A DNA stretch of 63,466 bases from Candidatus Parcubacteria bacterium (GCA_963766795.1 CAVYBN010000006.1:1-63466), one strand, 5' to 3'; shown: positions 29,143 through 56,542, counted from the stretch's first letter. A program made the numbers and translations. Notes: generated by a model not told the origin, from the sequence alone.

Positions 29143-30202
29143 ATGGACTACCGCAAAGAAATCCAAGAGCTCGTCGACCTGATCATCAAGGAGAACGCTT
29201 CCGACCTGCATCTGTCGGCCGGGCGCACCCCGATCATCCGAGTATCCGGAGGGCTCATTCCTTTGGTCAAGAAGCCGGTCATCACGGATGCCGACATGAA
29301 GGGCTTCGTGGGCATCTTCCTCTCGGCCCCGGGCCGCGAGATCCTAGAGCGCGACAAGACCGCCGATTTCTCGTACAGCCTGGTCCAGACGCGATTCCGC
29401 GGCAACGTCTATTACCGCCAAGGGTCGTTATCCATAGCGCTACGCCTCATCCCGCGGGTCATCCGTACCCTGGCCGAGCTCAATTTGCCGCCGATCCTGG
29501 AGACCTTCACCCGCCGCAGGCAGGGATTCTTCCTGACGGTCGGACCGGTCGGGCAGGGCAAGACCACTACTCTGGCCACTTTGATCGAGATCATCAACCA
29601 GACCCGGGCCGAGCACATCCTGACCATCGAAGATCCCGATCGAATACCAATTCGAGTCGAAGCGCTCCATCATCGACCAGCGCGAGGTCCGCATAGACAC
29701 GCCGGATTTCAGCGACGCCCTGGTCTCGATGTTCCGCGAGGACATAGACGTCTGCATGGTCGGCGAGATGCGCGACGCCATGACCATATCCACGGCCGTG
29801 ACCGCCGCCGAGACCGGCCACTTGATCTTCTCGACCCTGCACACCAACGACGCTTCCCAGACCATCGACCGCATCATCGACTCGTTCCCGTCCGATCAGC
29901 AGGACCAGATCCGCGTCCAGCTGGCCGGATCGATGACCGGCATCTTCTCACAGCGCCTGATCCCGCGGATCTCCGGCGGCCTCATCCCGGCCTACGAGCT
30001 CCTGATCAACAACAACGCCGTCTCCAACCTGATCCGCGAGAAGCGCATACACGAGATCAACACGGTCATAGAGACCAGCTCGCAGGAAGGCATGATCGAC
30101 TTCAACCGCTCGCTGGCTGAACTGGTCAGAGCGGGGGAGATCACGGTGGAGAGCGCATATTTGAACTCGCATAATCCGAAAGTCCTCGAAAAAATGATTT
30201 GA
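29143..30202 (+). CDS. pilT: Type IV pilus retraction ATPase PilT (+1 frameshift near 29637)
   Basis: ASDLHLSAG, GPVGQGKTTTL, TIEDP|IE, VGEMRD, GHLIFSTLHTN, RIIDSFP. Confidence 0.95.
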
Positions 30203-32370: not shown

Positions 32371-32887
32371 ATGAAAAAGTTCACTCGAGGTTTCACCCTC
32401 ATCGAATTGCTCGTCGTCATCGCCATCATCGGTATCTTGGCGTCCATCGTGCTCGTGTCATTGAACGGCGCTAGAAAGAAGGGATGCTGATGCCCGCATC
32501 ATCTCCGATGTCCAGGAGATTCGCACGGCTCTGGAGACCGGTTATAACGGTTCGGGATATTCTGATCTTGTCGCAATTGCCAACTGCAATGGCACGACGA
32601 ATGCCGTTAATGCGGTTTTGAACACTAACGCGGCTCTTAATGGATGTGTTGCTCCGGCGGGCCCTGACAATAACAATATCAGTACGCTTGCTAATGATGC
32701 CCTAAGCCAAGGCGGCTTTATCTATCTCGATGAGAATGCAGGGTCGCCAGTCAATGGTTATACTCTTCGTGGACAATTGTCTTCGAATAACAAAGGAGAT
32801 TTCTGCATTGACTCGACGGGTAAGACTGATGGGTCCGAACCTTTCGGGACTCCGAACACGAACGCCGCTGTTGTCGGTTGTCAGTAA
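32371..32887 (+). CDS. Type IV pilin 2, paralog of pilin 1 (+1 frameshift near 32487)
   Basis: The 5' ~160 nt are near-identical to pilin 1; divergent C-terminus ending FCIDSTG...GCQ. Confidence 0.9.
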
Positions 32888-32911
32888 TTCCTAGTAATTG
32901 TCTTGCTTCCC

Positions 32912-36833: not shown

Positions 36834-37389
36834 ATGCGTATCCTCAGCCGCGGCTTCACCCTCATAGAATTGTTGGTGGTCATCGCCATCATCGGCGTTC
36901 TGGCGTCCATCGTGCTGGCGTCACTGAGCCGGCGCCAGGAACAGAGGCAAAGATACGCGCATCGTCTCGGATGTCCACGAATTAAGGACGCAGATGGAGA
37001 ATGATCGCACGCCCACTGATTATTCGGGCAGTTTCACTATAGTCACTGCTTCCGCGACCGTATGGTTTGGCAGTGGCACTTTGACGCAATACTCTGCCGT
37101 CGTTTCAGATGCCAAAACGAATTCATCGATCAACGGACCTATCGCCACGACCACTTATATCAGTCCGGGTGGCACGGTCATCAGCGGCACTGCGGCTGCT
37201 GGCGCGGCAAATGGTCCGGAGATTGTTGTCGTTGAAAATGGCGTCGCATCCGGCGGTCTTTGGACGACGAAACCTACGGCTTATTCGATTTGGGGCTATT
37301 TGAGCACTGGCAATTGGTACTGTCTTGATTCCGCGGGAAATTCGAAGAACGGCACTTCAGCGACGCCGACTACCATCACTTGCCTGTAA
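36834..37389 (+). CDS. Type IV pilin 3 (+1 frameshift near 36929)
   Basis: RG|[20 protein letters not shown]; WYCLDSAG...C. Confidence 0.88.
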
Positions 37390-37444
37390 AAGATCAAAAA
37401 AGACAGTTGCTGCCTTTTCCGTGTCAGCCGGCTAAAATAGCATC

Positions 37445-37999
37445 ATGAATCTTCAATCTTCAATCTTCAATATTCAATCGCGCAGTCGCGCCTTCACTCT
37501 GATTGAATTGATCGTCGTCATCGCCATCATCGCGATCTTGACCGCCTTGATTCTGCCGGCTCTGGCCGGCTCAAAAGGCAAGGCTCGCGACGCGCAGAGA
37601 GTTTCCGATATCAGCCAATTGCAGGGCGCTTTGGAATTGTATTTTGACAGGTGCGGAGATTATCCGGCTCCTGATAATAATAAGATAGACAGCACAGTTT
37701 TAACACAAACTGATAGCAATTGTCCGTCCGGCGTCACATTCCAGACTTATATATCCCAAGTGCCTACGCCGCCAGCCGGAGCAGGTCAATCTGCCTATGA
37801 TTATGCGGTTATGAGCACTTCCGGCGGTCTTGCAGTGAACTATGTTTTGCATGCTGCGCTTGAATCGCCTAATGCGGCCGGCGCAAAAAGCCTCAATGGA
37901 ATGCCGACTCCGCCAAACGGTTATAGTTGGTCAGGATCGGCCAGCTATACATGCAGCAATACCAGCGGTTCTGTCGATTATTGCGCGACTTCTAACTGA
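37445..37999 (+). CDS. Type IV pilin 4/pseudopilin
   Basis: RA|FTLIELIVVIAII, KARDAQRVSDI, LELY...YP; the leader is made of AATCTTC heptamers. Confidence 0.9.
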   Translation: MNLQSSIFNIQSRSRAFTLIELIVVIAIIAILTALILPALAGSKGKARDAQRVSDISQLQGALELYFDRCGDYPAPDNNKIDSTVLTQTDSNCPSGVTFQTYISQVPTPPAGAGQSAYDYAVMSTSGGLAVNYVLHAALESPNAAGAKSLNGMPTPPNGYSWSGSASYTCSNTSGSVDYCATSN

Positions 38000-38809
38000 T
38001 GTTTCCGGTCATTCCTCTAATCACTGTCCTAGCTTTCATCTTCGGCTGCGTCATCGGCAGCTTTTTGAACGTGGTGTCTCTGCGATTCAAAACCGGCAAG
38101 GGCTTGAATGGCCGCTCGATGTGCATGTCTTGCGGCAAGACTCTGACTTGGAAAGAATTGGTGCCGGTTTTCAGTTTCTTAGTCCAAAAAGGGAAGTGCC
38201 ATGGCTGTAAGAGCAAGATCTCATGGCAGTACCCGTTGGTCGAGCTGGCCACCGGAACATTGTTCGCGTTGATATTTTGGCAAACTTTGAAGTACGCGAC
38301 GATTTCACCGGCTGTCATTGCGATCACACTGATATACCTGATTTCAACCTGCCTTTTAATTGTAATCACCGTCTATGACATCAGACATAAGATCATCCCC
38401 GATTCGTTGGTCTACACATTCGACACGCTGGCTTTAATCAGCGTATTTGTCGGAGGACCAATCGATGATCCACGCGCCGCATCTCTGGACCTTGCTAGCC
38501 GGTCCGATACTGGCCTTGCCGTTCGCTTTGCTCTGGCTGGGCTCAAAAGGCGCTTGGATGGGCCTTGGCGACGCCAAACTGGTCTTAGGGCTGGGCTGGC
38601 TCCTCGGCTTGAATGCCGGTACCAATGCGGTCATTCTGGCCTTCTGGATCGGCGCGATCATAAGCTTGCTCTGGATGTTCGCGACTTATCGCCGATTCAA
38701 ATCCCGCTTGGAGATCCCATTCGGGCCGTATCTGATCCTTGGACTTTATCTAGTCTTGTTTTTCCATATCCAAGTCCTCGATTTCCGCATGCTGGCGAGC
38801 CTTTTTTGA
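37999..38809 (+). CDS. pilD: Prepilin peptidase (A24; +1 frameshift near 38460)
   Basis: GSFLNVV, RSMCMSC, CHGC, YPLVE, YDIRHKII, MGLGDAKL, IPFGPYL. Confidence 0.93.
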
Positions 38810-38862
38810 CGCATGTGGGCGGTCGCATATCAATGTCAGCCGTTTATTGATACAATAGGCGC

Positions 38863-39513
38863 ATGAGCCGCGGCTTCACTCTAATCGAGCTGGTCATTTC
38901 GATAGCCATCTTCGTCATCATGACGGCTTTGGTCGTCGCCAAATACGGCAATTTCAATCAAGGCGCGCTCCTGACTGACACCGCCTATGACATCGCATTG
39001 GTGCTCCACACCGCGCAGTCTTACGGTTTGAGCGTCAAGAATGCCGGCGCGCTTGGCAGGCGCCGCCAATTTCCAGACGGCTTACGGAGTGGATTTCATT
39101 CAGCTCTCCAAGCGCCAATTCGTGCGCATCGGGTGGAGTGTCGTCGAATCCCACGAATATAACTCTGTTCGCCGATACTGATCCTCCTACTACGCGACGA
39201 TTCCGATCAATGTATGCACCTCGAATGACACAGGCGTCACTTCCTACGCCATCACCCGCGGCGCGACCGTTTCTTGTTTCTACGCCGGGCCGCCGCCTTC
39301 CGGATCAGCAATCAGTCGTTTGCGCTTCCGTCAATGACAATGTCACTCAGCTCGACATCACTTTCCTGCGTCCCAATCCCGATGCCACGATCTGCGGCGG
39401 CGTCAGCGTCTAATTGCAACAATCCGTACGGCCAGATCACTTTGAAGGCGAGCGACGGCAGTCTGCGCACCATCGGCGTGTATCAGAACGGGCAGATCGT
39501 AGTCAATCAGTGA
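38863..39513 (+). CDS. Minor pilin (FimT/GspH-like; several apparent frameshifts)
   Basis: RG|FTLIELVISIAI; the C-terminal part in other frames has ITFLRP and GQIVVNQ. Confidence 0.75.
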
Positions 39514-39522
39514 TAATACAAC

Positions 39523-40312
39523 ATGAATCATTTAACAAAAATCAAGAAGCTAGAAGCCGGAAGTGAATCTGTCACCCCCGCGAAAGCGGTGGTCCAGAGT
39601 CAAACCTCTAGATCTGATTCAGATGGCAAAACACTGGATTCCCGCTTGCGCGGGAATGACACAGCCCTAAGCTCGATGTCTTCGCGTGGTTTTACCCTCG
39701 TCGAGATGATCGTCTCGCTGATGATATTCTCGATCGTGGCCGTGGTGGCTCTGGCCGCGCTGGTCAAGATCATCGACGCCAATAATAAGGCCCAGACCAT
39801 CCAAGCCGCCGTGACCAGCTTGTCATTCTCACTGGACTCCATGTCTCGCGAATTGCGCACGGGGTCGAACATCCATTGTATGTTTCATTCAGACGGAACG
39901 TTTGATTCGAGCAGATTTCTCCCGCAAATTCAAGCAATTGTCCGCTGGGTTCAAGTAGCGGACAGAATCTGATCTTCTTTCCAATCTGCGCGCGTCGAGC
40001 ACGGCGGCTTTCCGCATTGCCGGCTTTGGTACGCATATCTTTTCACTGGAACGAATCCAGTGCAACTCGAAAAAGCCGAACAGCCCTCAAATAGCGCTGA
40101 TTGCACCAGTGACTCATTCGGCCCGGCTTCATACACCTCCGTCGTGCCATCAGAATGTCACCCTGACCTCATACCAATTGGGAGTCAGCTATGATCAGAA
40201 CACACAACCGTATCCGTTGGTCTTCGTGGAGCTTTCGGGCACTGCCGGCAACAAAGAGCAGACCAAGACCTATTTCAGCGTCCAGACCGCCATGTCGCCG
40301 CGAACGCCATAG
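39523..40312 (+). CDS. Minor pilin (PilW-like) with a REP insertion in the leader; frameshifted
   Basis: RG|FTLVEMIVS, SMSRELRTG, C-terminal VQTAMSPR. Confidence 0.78.
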
Positions 40313-40321
40313 AATACCGCC

Positions 40322-40951
40322 ATGAATCATCAAACAGGGTACAGGGTACAGGGTACAGAAAAGAAGAAACATGTTTTTTTCCCTGCACCCTGCACCCTGC
40401 ACCCTGAACCCTTGCGTTCCCGCGGTTTTACCCTCGTCGAGACCCTAGTCGCCATCACCGTCCTCATGATCGCCATCGCCGGGCCGCTGGTCGTGGCCAG
40501 CAAAGGGCTATTCGGCGCTTTGGCTTCGAAAGACCAGATGATCGCCGCGTATCTGGCGCAGGAGAGCATGGAGACGATCAAGAACATCAGAGATAACGAC
40601 ATAGCTGCCAACGCGAGTTCCTGGGTGTTGGCCAATACTTCAGGCTCTCCGACGCATTTGACGGAATGCGGCAATATAGGAGGATTCTGTGACGCCAGCG
40701 CCGTGGACAGTCCGTCGTTTCAGGTCTGTCCATTTAACGGCGTCGCGCAACCCTGCCCGATATATCTGGTGAACGGATATTACAGTCACAACAGCGGCGG
40801 CACGCAGACTCTCTTCACGCGCTACTTCTACGTGTCGAATCTAAATGTCGACGGCAAAGAATTGCTAGTCACGGTGGTGGTCGATTGGCATGAAGGCACG
40901 ACGCCTTATGAGATATCGCTGTCGAGCGAGCTGACGGATTCGACGAGATAA
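40322..40951 (+). CDS. Minor pilin (PilV-like) with a heptamer element in the leader
   Basis: RG|FTLVETLVAI, YLAQESME; leader TGYRVQGTE...PCTLHPEP. Confidence 0.88.
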   Translation: MNHQTGYRVQGTEKKKHVFFPAPCTLHPEPLRSRGFTLVETLVAITVLMIAIAGPLVVASKGLFGALASKDQMIAAYLAQESMETIKNIRDNDIAANASSWVLANTSGSPTHLTECGNIGGFCDASAVDSPSFQVCPFNGVAQPCPIYLVNGYYSHNSGGTQTLFTRYFYVSNLNVDGKELLVTVVVDWHEGTTPYEISLSSELTDSTR

Positions 40952-40953
40952 AT

Positions 40954-41526
40954 ATGAACAATTTTCAATTTTCAATTTTCAATTTTCAATCCCGATCTCG
41001 CGGCTACACTCTGCTCTTCGCCGTGCTGGTGGCCGCTCTGGTCTTGGGCGTAGCAGTTTTCATTCTGGAGATCAGCACCAAGCAGTATGAGCTATCGGCC
41101 TCGGCCAGAGATTCCATGTATTCTTTCTACGCCGCCGATTCCGGCATAGAATGCGTGGCTCTGGATCAGCTGTACGCGACTTCCAGCTCGGCGATCAATT
41201 TCACTTGCGGCAATGACGCGGTGACTTGGACAGTTATCCCGATTTCCGATCCCAACGGTATTTATAAAGACGACGGCTATTACTATGAGCTGGATCTCAA
41301 TCTGCAGTTCTCCAGTCCGACTTGCGCGGTCATAGACATCGTGGCGTTCTATTCGCCGCAGCCTAACAGTTATGAGCATGATATTACGACATCCAGAGGA
41401 TACAACCACTGCGTGAATATCGGAACTTCAGGCGCGCCGAATTGGGTTCCCGACACCTCCAATCCCAATACCGTGGAGCGCGCCCTCCAGCTTTCTCATA
41501 CGACGGCGCCGCCCGGCAGCTATTGA
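40954..41526 (+). CDS. PilX-like minor pilin
   Basis: RG|YTLLFAVLV (no Glu5), AFYAADSGIEC-like motif; the leader is made of AATTTTC heptamers. Confidence 0.8.
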   Translation: MNNFQFSIFNFQSRSRGYTLLFAVLVAALVLGVAVFILEISTKQYELSASARDSMYSFYAADSGIECVALDQLYATSSSAINFTCGNDAVTWTVIPISDPNGIYKDDGYYYELDLNLQFSSPTCAVIDIVAFYSPQPNSYEHDITTSRGYNHCVNIGTSGAPNWVPDTSNPNTVERALQLSHTTAPPGSY

Positions 41527-41567: not shown

Positions 41568-43835
41568 ATGAAAACCAGCGCGTCGCGGGAAACCATAGGC
41601 CGTTTGGACAAGCTCAAGGAAGCGATAGAGAAATATCGCTATGAATATCACGTGCTCGACAAGGCCAGTATCTCACCTGAAGCGCTGGATTCGTTGAAGC
41701 ACGAGCTCGTTGAGATCGAAGCGAAATATCCTGAATTGGTGACCCCGGATTCGCCGTCACAGCGCGTGGCGGGGAAGCCCTTGCCGGAATTCAAGAAGGT
41801 CCGCCACGAAGTACCGCAATGGTCGTTCAACGACGCTTTTTCGCCGGAGGAGATCCGTGAATTCGACGCGCGGGTGAAGCGGTTCCTCGTCCAAGCTGGC
41901 GTGAATGATCCGCCGACATATACTTGCGAGCATAAGATAGACGGATTGAAGATCGTGCTCTCCTATGAGAACGGCTTATTGAAACAAGCGGCCACGCGCG
42001 GCGATGGAACGATCGGCGAAGATGTCACGATGAATGTCCGGACGATCGAGTCGATACCATTAAAGCTCAAGGGGACAGGGTACAGGGGACAGGGTACAGG
42101 AAAGACTGCACCCTTCACCCTGAACCCTGTACCCTCTCTTTTGATCGTTGAAGGCGAAGTCTGGATGGCCAAGAGCACGCTGGCTATTTTGAATAAGGAA
42201 CAGGCCAAGAAGGGTCTGGAGCCCTTCGCAAATCCACGAAACCTAGCCGCTGGATCTATCCGTCAATTGGATCCGAAGATGACGGCGTCGCGGCATCTGG
42301 ATTCGTTCATCTATGATCTGGCGCAGATAATACAGGGTACAGGGTACAGGTTACAGGGTACAGAAAAGCACAAACACCCTGAACCCTGGACCCTGAACCC
42401 TGTACCCTTTCCTCCGACCCAGCATGAAGAGCTCGAATTCCTGCGGTCGCTTGGCTTCAAGGTAAACTCGCATTACCGGCATTGCCGTGATATCGAGGAA
42501 GTCATCGCTTACTGGAATGAGTGGCAGAAGAAGATGCCCCGCCAGGACTACTGGGCCGACGGGGTGGTCGTCAAAGTGGATTTGCGCAAGCACCAGGAAA
42601 AGCTCGGCTACACCGGCAAGGCGCCGCGCTGGGGCATCGCCTTCAAATTCCCGGGCCAGGAAGTCACGACCGTCCTTGAAGATATCACATTCCAGATCGG
42701 TCGCACCGGCGTGATAACGCCAGTAGCAAATCTAAAGCCGGTTTCAATAGGCGGTTCGACTGTTTCGCGTGCCACGCTCCACAACGAGGACGAGATCAAA
42801 CGCCTCGACTTGCGGCTCGGCGACACGGTCATCTTGAAGAAAGCCGGCGATGTCATTCCCGATATCATTTCAGTCGTCAAGGAATTGCGGCCGGACGACT
42901 CAAAGTCTTTCGTCTGGCCCTCGCATATCCCAGCCTGCGGCGGCGATAGCCGCATTGAAAGAGTCCCCGGCGAAGCGGCTTGGCGCTGCGTCTCCAAAGA
43001 TTCCTTCGCGCAGCTCAAACGACGCTTCTATTACTTCACTTCCAAGAAATGCTTTGACATAGACGGCCTTGGCCCAAAGATCATCGACCTCTTGTTTGAT
43101 CACCAATTGATCGCTTCATTCGACGATATCTTCACTCTAAAGAAAGGCGACCTTTCGAGCTTGCCGCGCTTCGGCGAGAAGTCGGTCGACAACTTATTGG
43201 CAGCGATCGAAAAGGCGCGCAATGTGACGCTTCCGCGATTCCTGGCGTCATTGTCGATCCCTCAAGTCGGCGAAGAGACGGCGTATGACGTGGCGAAACA
43301 CTTTCAACAGGGTACAGGGCACAGGGTACAGGGTACAGAGGGACTCAAAACACATAACTCAAAAGTCAAAACTGAATCACATTCTGTACCCTTCACCCTG
43401 AACCCTGTACCCTCTTCTGCCATTTCTGCAATCACAAAAGCTTCAAAAGATGAATTCGAATCTATCTACGGCGTCGGTCCTATTGTTGCGCAATCTTTGG
43501 CTGACTGGTTTGCTGATAAGGACAACCAAGCACTCGTTAAAAGGCTTTTGAAGCAGGTGACGATTGAAGCCGGCGATTCAGGAACGACTGGCGCGGCTGG
43601 CGGCAATCAAAAGCTTGCAGGGCAATCATTCGTCTTTACGGGAACATTGCCGACTCTCGAAAGGGAAGCCGCCCAACAAATGGTACGCGATCACGGCGGC
43701 GACGTTTCGGGTTCAGTTTCAAAAAAGACCTCATTCGTGGTGGCCGGCAGTGACGCCGGCTCGAAGCTCGATAAGGCGCGCAAACTCGGAGTCAAGATCG
43801 TCAATGAAGAGGAGTTTGTGAAGATTATCGGATAA
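41568..43835 (+). CDS. ligA: NAD-dependent DNA ligase with three in-frame repeat insertions
   Basis: EHKIDG (adenylated Lys), ATRGDG, ANPRN, DGVVVK, QIGRTG, C-terminal BRCT (FVFTG...GSKL.KA). Confidence 0.98.
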   Translation: MKTSASRETIGRLDKLKEAIEKYRYEYHVLDKASISPEALDSLKHELVEIEAKYPELVTPDSPSQRVAGKPLPEFKKVRHEVPQWSFNDAFSPEEIREFDARVKRFLVQAGVNDPPTYTCEHKIDGLKIVLSYENGLLKQAATRGDGTIGEDVTMNVRTIESIPLKLKGTGYRGQGTGKTAPFTLNPVPSLLIVEGEVWMAKSTLAILNKEQAKKGLEPFANPRNLAAGSIRQLDPKMTASRHLDSFIYDLAQIIQGTGYRLQGTEKHKHPEPWTLNPVPFPPTQHEELEFLRSLGFKVNSHYRHCRDIEEVIAYWNEWQKKMPRQDYWADGVVVKVDLRKHQEKLGYTGKAPRWGIAFKFPGQEVTTVLEDITFQIGRTGVITPVANLKPVSIGGSTVSRATLHNEDEIKRLDLRLGDTVILKKAGDVIPDIISVVKELRPDDSKSFVWPSHIPACGGDSRIERVPGEAAWRCVSKDSFAQLKRRFYYFTSKKCFDIDGLGPKIIDLLFDHQLIASFDDIFTLKKGDLSSLPRFGEKSVDNLLAAIEKARNVTLPRFLASLSIPQVGEETAYDVAKHFQQGTGHRVQGTEGLKTHNSKVKTESHSVPFTLNPVPSSAISAITKASKDEFESIYGVGPIVAQSLADWFADKDNQALVKRLLKQVTIEAGDSGTTGAAGGNQKLAGQSFVFTGTLPTLEREAAQQMVRDHGGDVSGSVSKKTSFVVAGSDAGSKLDKARKLGVKIVNEEEFVKIIG

Positions 43836-44356: not shown

Positions 44357-45923
44357 ATGAAAATCGATTTGAAGACACTAACGATCGTCAAAGCCCACGA
44401 GCACTTGAAGAAAGGCGATTTTACCGCGGTCGAGCTGACACAAGCTTATTTGGATGCGATCAAATCTAAGAATAAGGATATTCACGCTTATCTAGAGGTC
44501 TTTGATGATGCTCTTGACGCAGCCAGGAAAGCAGACAAAAAGATTCAAGATTCAATCCGCCATCCGCCAGCTGGCGGAGCGGACAAGAATGAAGAGTTTC
44601 CAATGCTTACAGGAATACCGATGGCGATCAAAGACAATATTTTGATCAAAGGCCATATCGCCAGCTCGGCTTCGAAGATCCTGGAAAATTACCGTGCGAC
44701 CTATTATGCGACCGCGGCCTTGAAGCTGGCCAAAGAAGGAGCAGTTTTTCTCGGCCGCACAAACATGGATGAGTTCGCCATGGGCGGCTCGACGGAGAAT
44801 TCGGCGTACGGGCCGACGCATAATCCGCATGACTTGAGCCGAGTTCCAGGCGGGACTTCCGGCGGCTCGGCGGCGGCTGTGGCAGCCGGCATGGCTCTGG
44901 CGGCACTAGGTTCCGACACGGGCGGCTCCATCCGCCAGCCAGCCGGCTTCTGCGGTGTGGTGGGCCTGAAGCCGACATACGGAGCAGTTTCGCGCTACGG
45001 CTTGATGGCGGCGGTCTCTTCATTTGATCAAATTGGCCCTATCGCTAAGACAGTCGGAGATGCGGAGATTGTTTTCAGTGTGATTAGAGGGAGAGATGCG
45101 AAAGATGGAACCACCATTCAAGATTCAAGATTCAAGATTCAGGATTCAAGATTCGGGGGCAGAGACAAAATCTGAAATCCGAAATCCAAGACTATCTTCA
45201 AAGAAGCCAGTGATCGGCATTCCAAGGTCGTTTCTTTCAATGGGCGGGATAGATCCGGCAGTCAAAGCGGCATTTGATGCTAGCGAGAAGAGATTCAAAT
45301 CTTTGGGGTACGAGATCAAGGACATCGATCTGCCGAATAATCAATACGCTCTGCCTGTCTATTACATATTGAACTTCGCGGAAGTCTCTTCCAATATGGC
45401 GCGCTATGACGGCATGCGCTACGGTCTGCATGTAGACGGAAAGGACGGCATCGAAGACTATTTCAAAACGCGCAGGGCTGGGCTTGGCAGGGAAGTCATT
45501 CGTCGCATCCTTCTTGGGACATACGTGCTTTCAGCCGGCTATTACGACGCATATTACAATCGTGCCAACGCCGTGCGCCGCATGATCACGGACGATTTCA
45601 ATAAAGCATTCGATCCGCTCCGCCAGTCGGCGGATGGCGGAGTCGATCTCATCGCGATGCCGACGACGCCGGGTCCGGCTTTCAAGATCGGCGAAAAAGC
45701 CAGCGACCCGATGGCCATGTACCTGGAGGACATATTCACTGTCACGGCTAATCTGACGGGATTGCCGGCGATCTCGATACCTTGCGGGGTGGTTGAACCG
45801 AGGTCGGACCTCGGAGCAACGGACAGAGGTCCGACCTCTTTGCCGATCGGTTTGCAATTGACGGCAAGACACGGCGATGAAGAGGCGCTATTCGAAGCAG
45901 GCAAAGAATTCCTCGGAGAATGA
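44357..45923 (+). CDS. gatA: Amidotransferase subunit A (frameshift in the heptamer tract near 45116-45160)
   Basis: AIKDNI, GRTNMDEFAMG, PGGTSGGSAAAV, GSDTGGSIRQPA, RRILLGTY, YLEDIFTV.ANL.GLPAIS. Confidence 0.96.
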
Positions 45924-56069: not shown

Positions 56070-56542
56070 AATAATCAATAACCAAGTATTCCAATAACCA
56101 AACTCTGCTGACCGTGTTTGGTTATTGTATCTTGGTTATTGTGATTTGAGGATGATTGTAGAGAGGATCCTTTTGATTTCATCACCCTCTTGCATCAACT
56201 TCATCATTCTCTTCTTAAGGGTCGGATTTGCTTCAGCGACTAGCTCCAGCCAATGAAGGCACTCCTTGGATTCTCTACGAGATATTTTTAGGCGCAGGAT
56301 GAAATCCTTTTTACCGAGAGCATCATTCGCTTCTCGGTAATTCGCGCCTATTGATCCGGCTGATCCCGCGACCTGACCGGATAAACGCCCATTGACGGCA
56401 TTTTTTGGCAACGCATTGCACAAGCGAATCACCCTCTTGGCAAAATCTGTGGTCCGTTTTTCTAGGTTAAATTGCATATTTGTATGTTTGGTCATTGTGA
56501 TTTGTAATTTGTTTGGTCATTGTATCTTGGTTATTGGTTATT
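56070..56542 (-). mobile_element. Heptamer-arm element carrying a four-helix-bundle gene
   Basis: 26-bp direct repeats (56116-56141 and 56511-56536, one mismatch) flank the gene; an inverted arm lies at 56070-56103. Confidence 0.65.
56136..56477 (-). CDS. Four-helix-bundle protein (TIGR02436/23S rRNA IVS-protein family)
   Basis: NLEKRT, SAGSIGANYREA, KDFI..LKIS.RE..E..HWLEL. An alternative ATG at 56495 lies inside the repeat arm. Confidence 0.92.
   Translation of the reverse strand: MQFNLEKRTTDFAKRVIRLCNALPKNAVNGRLSGQVAGSAGSIGANYREANDALGKKDFILRLKISRRESKECLHWLELVAEANPTLKKRMMKLMQEGDEIKRILSTIILKSQ

Follow-up and report, generated by a model that had tools for sequence, protein, structure and literature searches.

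Four of the five prepilin leaders encoded between 37.4 and 41.0 kb in a conserved type IV pilus operon of a Candidatus Parcubacteria bacterium carry repeats, and we found that these repeats are members of two families dispersed through the genome, which are probably selfish and whose copies appear to be tolerated in leaders as harmless sites. The operon occupies 36.8-41.5 kb of the window, the whole stretch of DNA analysed here (63,466 nucleotides (nt); GCA_963766795.1, CAVYBN010000006.1:1-63466), which is the whole of contig C6 of a 916-kb genome in 18 contigs. The leader-coding stretches and their repeats are as follows.

37445-37492, + strand: leader of pilin B, MNLQSSIFNIQSRSRA, 16 amino acids (aa), cleavage placed after residue 16 by PF07963
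37448..37479, + strand: AATCTTC tandem array of pilin B, directly 3' of the ATG; 4.6 units with 92% matches in Tandem Repeats Finder (TRF), one variant unit AATATTC
39523..39690, + strand: leader-coding stretch of pilin D, 56 codons from the syntenic ATG; N_methyl at residues 53-77
39571..39660, + strand: inverted doublet of pilin D resembling repetitive extragenic palindromic (REP) elements, in frame as VTPAKAVVQ...LDSRLRGND
40322..40426, + strand: leader-coding stretch of pilin E, 35 codons made up of MNHQT, the hairpin and LRSRG; alternative TTG start at 40412
40334..40412, + strand: GGGTACA-type heptamer hairpin of pilin E (TRF and inverted repeats), in frame as GYRVQGTEKKKHVFFPAPCTLHPEP
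40954-41004, + strand: leader of pilin F, MNNFQFSIFNFQSRSRG, 17 residues
40959..40990, + strand: AATTTTC tandem array of pilin F (CAATTTT in TRF), 4.6 perfect units, 100% matches

TRF, inverted-repeat and fold evidence placed all four repeats where an earlier note on this DNA had located them, and its count of four repeat-bearing leaders in five was borne out, the exception being pilin C with the leader MSRG. The layout of a type IV prepilin (a hydrophilic leader ending in Gly or Ala, about 21 hydrophobic residues and Glu5) was found in pilins B, C, D and E. These proteins also matched PF07963 (N_methyl) above the cut-off, and the match placed cleavage after residues 16, 56 and 35 in pilins B, D and E, respectively. 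Pilin F had no Pfam match and lacks Glu5; it was assigned by synteny, its counterpart in relatives being the final minor pilin of the cluster. The last four to five leader residues were kept in all four cases (…SRSRA, …SSRG, …RSRG and …SRSRG), and each leader was positively charged overall, with Gly or Ala as its -1 residue. The repeats had been described as lying between the ATG and the cleavage site; this is true of pilins B and F, which offer no other in-frame start, and for pilins D and E it depends on use of the upstream ATG, as discussed below.

Two dispersed repeat families

Three of the four repeats belong to a family of heptamer arrays. The genome contained 101 strict period-7 arrays, compared with 2, 2, 11, 0 and 0 at periods 5, 6, 8, 9 and 10, and TRF returned 298 rows of period 7 against 31 of period 6 and 76 of period 8, an excess indicating that the arrays are not due to chance. 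The dominant units among the TRF rows were ACAGGGT (30), AAAAGTC (25) and AAGATTC (15). Adjacent inverted arrays formed 34 hairpin pairs, and the GGGTACA-type (ACAGGGT) hairpin was present at 16 loci or more. In pilin E its arms were ACAGGGT x3.6 at 40334-40358 and CCCTGCA x4.6 at 40381-40412 by TRF, with a fold of -48.7 kcal/mol (z = -5.7), and the pilin B and F arrays were single-armed, not palindromic and unstructured as RNA. Against Rfam (E <= 1), the only matches were to miRNA hairpin models, below threshold and attributable to chance, and no known RNA family was recovered.

When the placement of the arrays was examined, 52% lay within open reading frames (ORFs) and 24% were intergenic, where 11% was expected. 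Just one of about 72 coding arrays was out of frame. Arrays measured 25-35 nt in coding and intergenic DNA alike; the proposal that coding arrays are limited to 1+3k units, by in-situ amplification under frame selection, was set aside, this comparison of lengths being uninformative. ATGAAT as a start codon borne by the element was also rejected, since AAT ranks second among second codons anyway (26 of 469 genes). Three GGGTACA hairpins were found in frame at 42070-43413 in the intact 755-aa ligA, and other elements or none occupied the same sites in the closest relative found, the metagenome contig L021, which is about 80-88% identical at the nucleotide level in ligA. A longer palindrome with GCAGGAAGCAGG-type arms stood at two of these three sites in L021 (window alignment ~42035-42420), and the third was nearly empty.

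Heptamer arrays also adjoined five of the six 23S_rRNA_IVP (PF05635) genes of the genome, with inverted arrays on both sides in three. Genes bracketed by inverted arrays were noted at C7:36460-36892, C9:52750-53166, C8:59319-59737 and window 56160-56542. The gene at C7:36460-36892 had GGGTACA-type arms, as in the pilin E leader and ligA, so that the pilin E hairpin looks like a version of such a cassette without its gene; the arms at C9:52750-53166 were of the ATTCAAG type found in an array of gatA. On our reading, the heptamer family comprises arrays about 30 nt long, some with one arm and others in hairpin pairs, and its gene-bearing versions carry a four-helix-bundle gene of the type found in 23S rRNA intervening sequences.

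The pilin D repeat belongs to the second, REP-like family, which comprised 83 loci, 40 of them doublets, with 43 of the 83 within long ORFs. The pilin D doublet folds into a single long hairpin (-50.8 kcal/mol, z = -2.6). Four ORF-internal copies in the same orientation as in pilin D were open in frame and read VIPAKAGIQ...LD(S/P)RFRG(N/G)D. In-frame doublets were present in a topA-like gene (two in one gene), a secA-like gene and other long ORFs; examples lie at C10:27819-27915, C10:28777-28869, C7:69942-70028 and C18:8384-8476, and a further translated form of the doublets is SFPRKRES...WIPA.AGMT. The genome held a single Y1_Tnp gene (PF01797, IS200/RAYT-like; C9:66636-66866). No doublet flanked it directly, the nearest being about 0.9 kb downstream at 67775-67863.

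Leaders as tolerated sites

The relatives matched by window proteins carry the labels Candidatus Taylorbacteria, Parcubacteria or Paceibacteria, from which the host is taken to be an uncultured, Taylorbacteria-like bacterium of the Candidate Phyla Radiation (CPR)/Patescibacteria. The operon runs pilin A (36834), pilin B (37445), PilD (37999), pilin C (38863), pilin D (39523), pilin E (40322), pilin F (40954) and ligA (41568), an order common to at least six congeners, and its intergenic gaps are only 1-55 nt long. The remaining features of the cluster are listed here.

37445..37999, + strand: pilin B gene, an intact ORF of 184 aa; N_methyl (PF07963) at residues 12-36
37999..38809, + strand: PilD prepilin peptidase, sole copy in the genome; A24_N_bact and Peptidase_A24; frameshift near 38457
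38863..39513, + strand: pilin C, repeat-free leader MSRG, cleavage after residue 4; two frameshifts in the body
40954..41526, + strand: pilin F gene, intact, 190 aa; mature N-terminus GYTLLF, without Glu5

To quantify the association with leaders, we compared the first 60 nt of about 12 prepilin genes in the genome with those of the other genes. Strict arrays were found in 3 of 12 prepilins and in 6 of 1040 other genes (Fisher p = 9e-5), and when the REP doublet was counted in, at least four elements fell in a leader target of about 0.36 kb, where 0.06 would be expected. Another case in the genome was a prepilin at C7:42589, whose leader MNHLNSKKEIVNSEKSG is derived from an array of AAATAGT-type units. 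A paralogue of the latter at C7:35031 (- strand) had an AAATAGC-type array upstream, out of frame and interrupted by stops; only a TTG/GTG start is left near its cleavage site, and the array may once have belonged to a leader and since lost the reading frame. In a further prepilin, the pilin B paralogue at C11:13838, the leader contained a decayed copy of the pilin B array, matching it unit for unit, and a REP doublet lay just upstream.

Comparison with relatives revealed turnover. None of these repeats was found in the orthologous leaders of six congeners, arrays were absent from the leaders of about 180 related prepilins, and the alignment of pilin B with its orthologues, present in 40 of 41 related genomes, began only at residue 12. 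Where relatives did have leader repeats these were often different: the pilin E leader of L021 contained (AAATTCC)x4 in place of the GGGTACA hairpin, that of L036 a decayed array, and the pilin D leader of G004 a hairpin-forming insert. When 400 genomes of the class were scanned for the pattern, one more case turned up, (AATTTTC)x4 in the prepilin leader MIGSNKKNFQFSIFNFQKSEG|FTLIE of G115, a genome of a different family; the reversed-pattern control gave none. In an independent case with another repeat type, the same GC-rich palindrome (translated ...RRVDLRTQVYPA...) stood in two different prepilin leaders of a related metagenome-assembled genome, L048:2292 and L048:5006. A same-species contig was not found in one metagenome scan, in which L021 was the best match, and an exact-protein look-up gave no match to strain variants of the genome.

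Collectively, the genome-wide families, the short gaps, the enrichment and the differing repeats of relatives agree with the earlier suggestion that leaders are a haven for repeats. Known type IV pilin leaders are cytoplasmic and 6-26 aa long, only the residue at -1 is critical and shortening is tolerated (PMC4471445). As the most probable explanation, we propose that copies arise anywhere and persist only where they are harmless. In a tight operon the cytoplasmic leader, cut off by the prepilin peptidase, would be the one dispensable stretch of each gene, of which no more is required than that it open with a start codon, be positively charged overall and have Gly or Ala at -1. Persisting copies would then be those that are in frame and free of stops, between the first 2-16 codons and the last 4-5, and translation would make them part of leaders of unusual length or composition, with which they would then be lost. 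The analysis itself shows that the repeats belong to the two families, are in frame, have a fixed position relative to the syntenic starts, are enriched in leaders and turn over between relatives; we infer the translation and removal of the repeats, their neutrality and the mode in which they are generated or moved.

Several observations weigh against this explanation. With the syntenic ATGs as starts, the predicted leaders of pilins E and D come to 35 and 56 aa, beyond the documented range of 6-26 aa for type IV pilin leaders (PMC4471445), into which pilins B (16) and F (17) fall, and a stable hairpin 12 nt past the start codon of pilin E should hinder translation. Arrays showed no overall enrichment at the 5' ends of genes across the genome (10% observed, 8% expected), and the prepilin effect rests on 12 genes, several of them paralogues. 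PilD and pilins A, C and D are frameshifted in the assembly, and relaxed selection on the cluster may account for the tolerance in another way. Finally, the pilin F array was identical at 35 of 35 nt in this genome and in L021/L079, with no synonymous change in 11 codons and flanks only about 80% identical, which is more than expected of a neutral passenger (0.8^35 = 4e-4). Independent evolution of the units would give such a match with a probability of about 4e-4, and homogenisation of the array would raise this to about 0.2; the identity suggests homogenisation, nucleotide-level selection or re-insertion from the same source.

Start codons and competing explanations

We consider it likely, judging from the sequence, that pilins D and E are translated from their upstream ATGs. 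These lie 10-12 nt past the preceding stop, at the same place as the starts of orthologues; in pilin D, ATG 39523 is 10 nt 3' of the pilin C stop, as in orthologues. The first residues, MNHQT and MNHLT, resemble the orthologue leaders MNTTHHTTRA, MTHTRPQRG and MNIIPHT…, and the pilin E orthologues with MTHTRPQRG, MNTTHHTTRA and MHTRF... leaders have the same syntenic start. From these ATGs the frame is open over 56 (D) and 35 (E) codons, and the other frames contain 4+4 and 1+1 stops. Syntenic start codons upstream of the repeats indicate that the repeats are most likely translated, giving leaders of 16, 56, 35 and 17 residues for pilins B, D, E and F.

A different arrangement of pilins D and E is possible, if doubtful: they may start at the later in-frame codons, ATG 39676 (MSSRG) and TTG 40412 (MRSRG), leaving the REP doublet and the hairpin outside the leader as a 5'-untranslated stabiliser, attenuator or RNase III site. 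The downstream starts would yield canonical leaders of five residues, comparable to MSRG of pilin C and to MKKG, MNRG and MNTRG of orthologues. Hairpins of -49 and -51 kcal/mol right after an initiation codon are unfavourable for initiation, and the C11:13838 paralogue has the same REP doublet upstream of its start, with an in-frame stop. Against this, the upstream ATGs stand at the syntenic start with orthologue-like first residues, every frame but that of the pilin contains stops in the two stretches, and the same elements are read through within the ligA, topA-like and secA-like ORFs. The arrangement does not apply to pilins B and F.

Another possibility concerns the arrays themselves. The identity of (AATTTTC)x4 at 35 of 35 nt across species and its recurrence in another family raise the idea that the heptamer module of about 30 nt is a conserved cis-element placed repeatedly after pilin starts, acting as a frame switch or as a translation or processing signal linked to the IVP cassettes, whose arms are the same. 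We regard this as rather unlikely; if true, the expression of CPR pilins would be controlled through the discarded part of the protein. The out-of-frame gatA array is what hints at a low-rate frame switch kept pure by slippage.

It is improbable, too, that the pilus cluster is simply decaying and that repeats accumulate through relaxed selection rather than because leaders are special. Frameshifts were found in pilin A, PilD, pilin C (two), pilin D (three), the second major-pilin cassette (32.4 kb) and both PilT-like genes. The break in PilD is inside the Peptidase_A24 domain: in tblastn with orthologues, residues 6-146 were in one frame and 147-262 in the next, and the sole PF01478 match of the genome came in two pieces. 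Removal of the leader by PilD, which the earlier note took as established, is sound in general (PMC4471445), but the only PilD of this assembly is split. The frameshift sites fall at window 36834-40312, 32371-32900 and 29497-29971 and at C17:8543-9715 (one of the PilT-like genes, with three frameshifts and one TAG). A genome assembly generally ridden with frameshifts was rejected as the cause of the broken pilus genes, given that a crude, heuristic count of frame-break junctions showed no excess over relatives (21.6 per 100 kb in the genome, 33.5 in the relatives' loci), and the lack of a general excess fits decay of the cluster itself. On the other side, all four repeats are in frame, stop-free and in leaders, and the mature parts hold none; pilins B, E and F, the three PilB-like ATPase genes and the two PilC genes are intact, as are ligA and a 793-aa GT fusion; and L021, in which the C-terminal half of pilin D is intact, also has leader arrays. 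The broken genes showed one stop codon only and almost no further decay, implying either very recent frameshifts or mistakes in the assembly.

We consider it very unlikely that the arrays as such are selected cis-elements, whether as unstructured A/U-rich aids to initiation or reinitiation without a clear Shine-Dalgarno sequence or as sites for a repeat-binding protein. The conservation of the pilin F array relative to its flanks, the recurrence of its unit in G115 and the position of the unstructured pilin B and F arrays directly past the ATG would suit such a role. There is also a precedent in the TAACTGA repeats of Beggiatoaceae, Cyanobacteria and Bacteroidetes, which are scattered heptamer sets of 2-6 copies, often near start codons, with a translational role proposed for those of Beggiatoaceae (PMC4679880). 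The arrays are nonetheless absent from the leaders of six congeners and about 180 related prepilins, the pilin E leaders of close relatives carry unrelated elements, sister copies decay (C11, L036), and arrays have no general preference for gene starts.

A contingency switch, in which slipped-strand mispairing alters the number of 7-nt units in pilins B and F and in the hairpin arms of pilin E and so turns pilin expression reversibly on and off, is hardly to be expected and was not supported by sequence comparison. Its arithmetic holds: the units are not multiples of three and, in pilins B, E and F, fall inside the opening 17-35 codons, so that gain or loss of one 7-mer would shift the frame, as the earlier note had argued. 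The architecture is that of Escherichia coli neuO, which has (AAGACTC)n in its 5' coding region and is ON only in the right frame (PMC13001214). Homogenisation by slippage would explain why the pilin F array is perfect in two species (0.8^7 = 0.21 against 0.8^35 = 4e-4), and the gatA array points to changes in unit number, or assembly errors of that kind, in this genome. A working switch fits the remaining evidence poorly. The tracts have about 4 units (3.6-4.6), compared with 13-38 in the heptamer switch of Haemophilus influenzae hmw (PMC2651432) and mostly about 20, with a range of 3-53 between and within strains, in neuO (PMC13001214). Variation of unit number among relatives was the check proposed for the switch, and the pilin F array had 4 units throughout in this genome, L021, L079 and G115, a small sample of consensus assemblies only, which goes part of the way to refuting it. 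L079 was assembled independently in another study and differs from L021 only at strain level, and the pilin E array was identical in the two. Between the pilin B array and its C11 paralogue there are substitutions but no change in unit number. Moreover, intergenic DNA and essential genes hold arrays just as long, suggesting that length is set by the element and not by slippage; the 101 strict arrays include those in ligA and gatA, with no concentration in surface genes; and the near-absence of out-of-frame coding arrays also speaks against switching.

The sole gatA (44357-45923) was found as two overlapping ORFs, split inside an ATTCAAG x5.6 array at 45116-45154 that replaces a variable linker after ...RGRDAKDGTT. 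Losing one 7-nt unit or gaining two would restore a single ORF, and the gene of relatives is a single ORF of 480-500 aa. The split may be either an assembly error in the repeat or real heterogeneity of unit number in an essential gene.

Comparison with known systems

The leader arrays share with neuO (PMC13001214) units that are not multiples of three in the 5' region of a surface-related gene, where unit number sets the frame. They differ from it in having about four units, the same number in all available relatives, and in occurring in housekeeping genes and intergenic DNA as well. In Neisseria opa genes, CTCTT repeats lie in the region coding for the signal peptide, the likeness again being that tandem repeats at the 5' end of a surface-related gene, in its coding or leader part, set the frame. 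Cyanobacterial short tandemly repeated repetitive (STRR) sequences are sets of heptamer direct repeats. Like these and the TAACTGA sets, the arrays are short heptamer sets scattered through the genome, and such sets occasionally lie in ORFs at protein ends. STRR and TAACTGA sets are mostly intergenic with one dominant unit; here there are several unit families, half of the arrays are in ORFs, many form inverted pairs and some, unlike those sets, enclose a 23S_rRNA_IVP gene.

With REP elements and REPINs, which go with a RAYT transposase, the pilin D element has in common that it is an inverted doublet of imperfect palindromes of about 30 nt, present in tens of copies in a genome with one Y1_Tnp gene. 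REPs are extragenic by definition, whereas 43 of the 83 loci here are in ORFs, and the Y1_Tnp gene is not flanked by repeats. The heptamer arrays beside five of the six PF05635 genes recall the 23S rRNA intervening sequences that bear such an ORF; unlike these, the leader copies have no gene and lie outside rRNA, and a mechanistic link between IVP genes and arrays is putative.

In the searchable literature we found no description of such repeats in class III signal leaders, and nothing specific on heptamer repeats in CPR/Patescibacteria. The operon may offer a natural example of how selfish or self-generated repeats survive in a compact genome, namely in segments that are removed after synthesis. 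In practical terms, start codons and leader lengths of pilins are easily miscalled when such genomes are annotated. If the arrays did vary, they would be the first candidate contingency system for the host-attachment pili of CPR bacteria.

The Rickettsia palindromic elements (RPEs) provide a further comparison. RPE conserved elements are about 150 bp long, as against 7-nt tandem arrays of about 30 nt per arm here; the present host is a free-living or epibiotic CPR bacterium; and the site is a cleaved class III signal leader instead of a surface loop. The single-armed arrays of pilins B and F also fall outside a definition based on dispersed hairpins. What the two systems share is a family of small dispersed palindromes or hairpins, of which many copies stand in frame and free of stops in unrelated genes and, in Rickettsia, are read through at tolerated positions (PMC10969869). 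The leader repeats would thus extend the Rickettsia type of translated repeat to the class III signal leaders of CPR bacteria.

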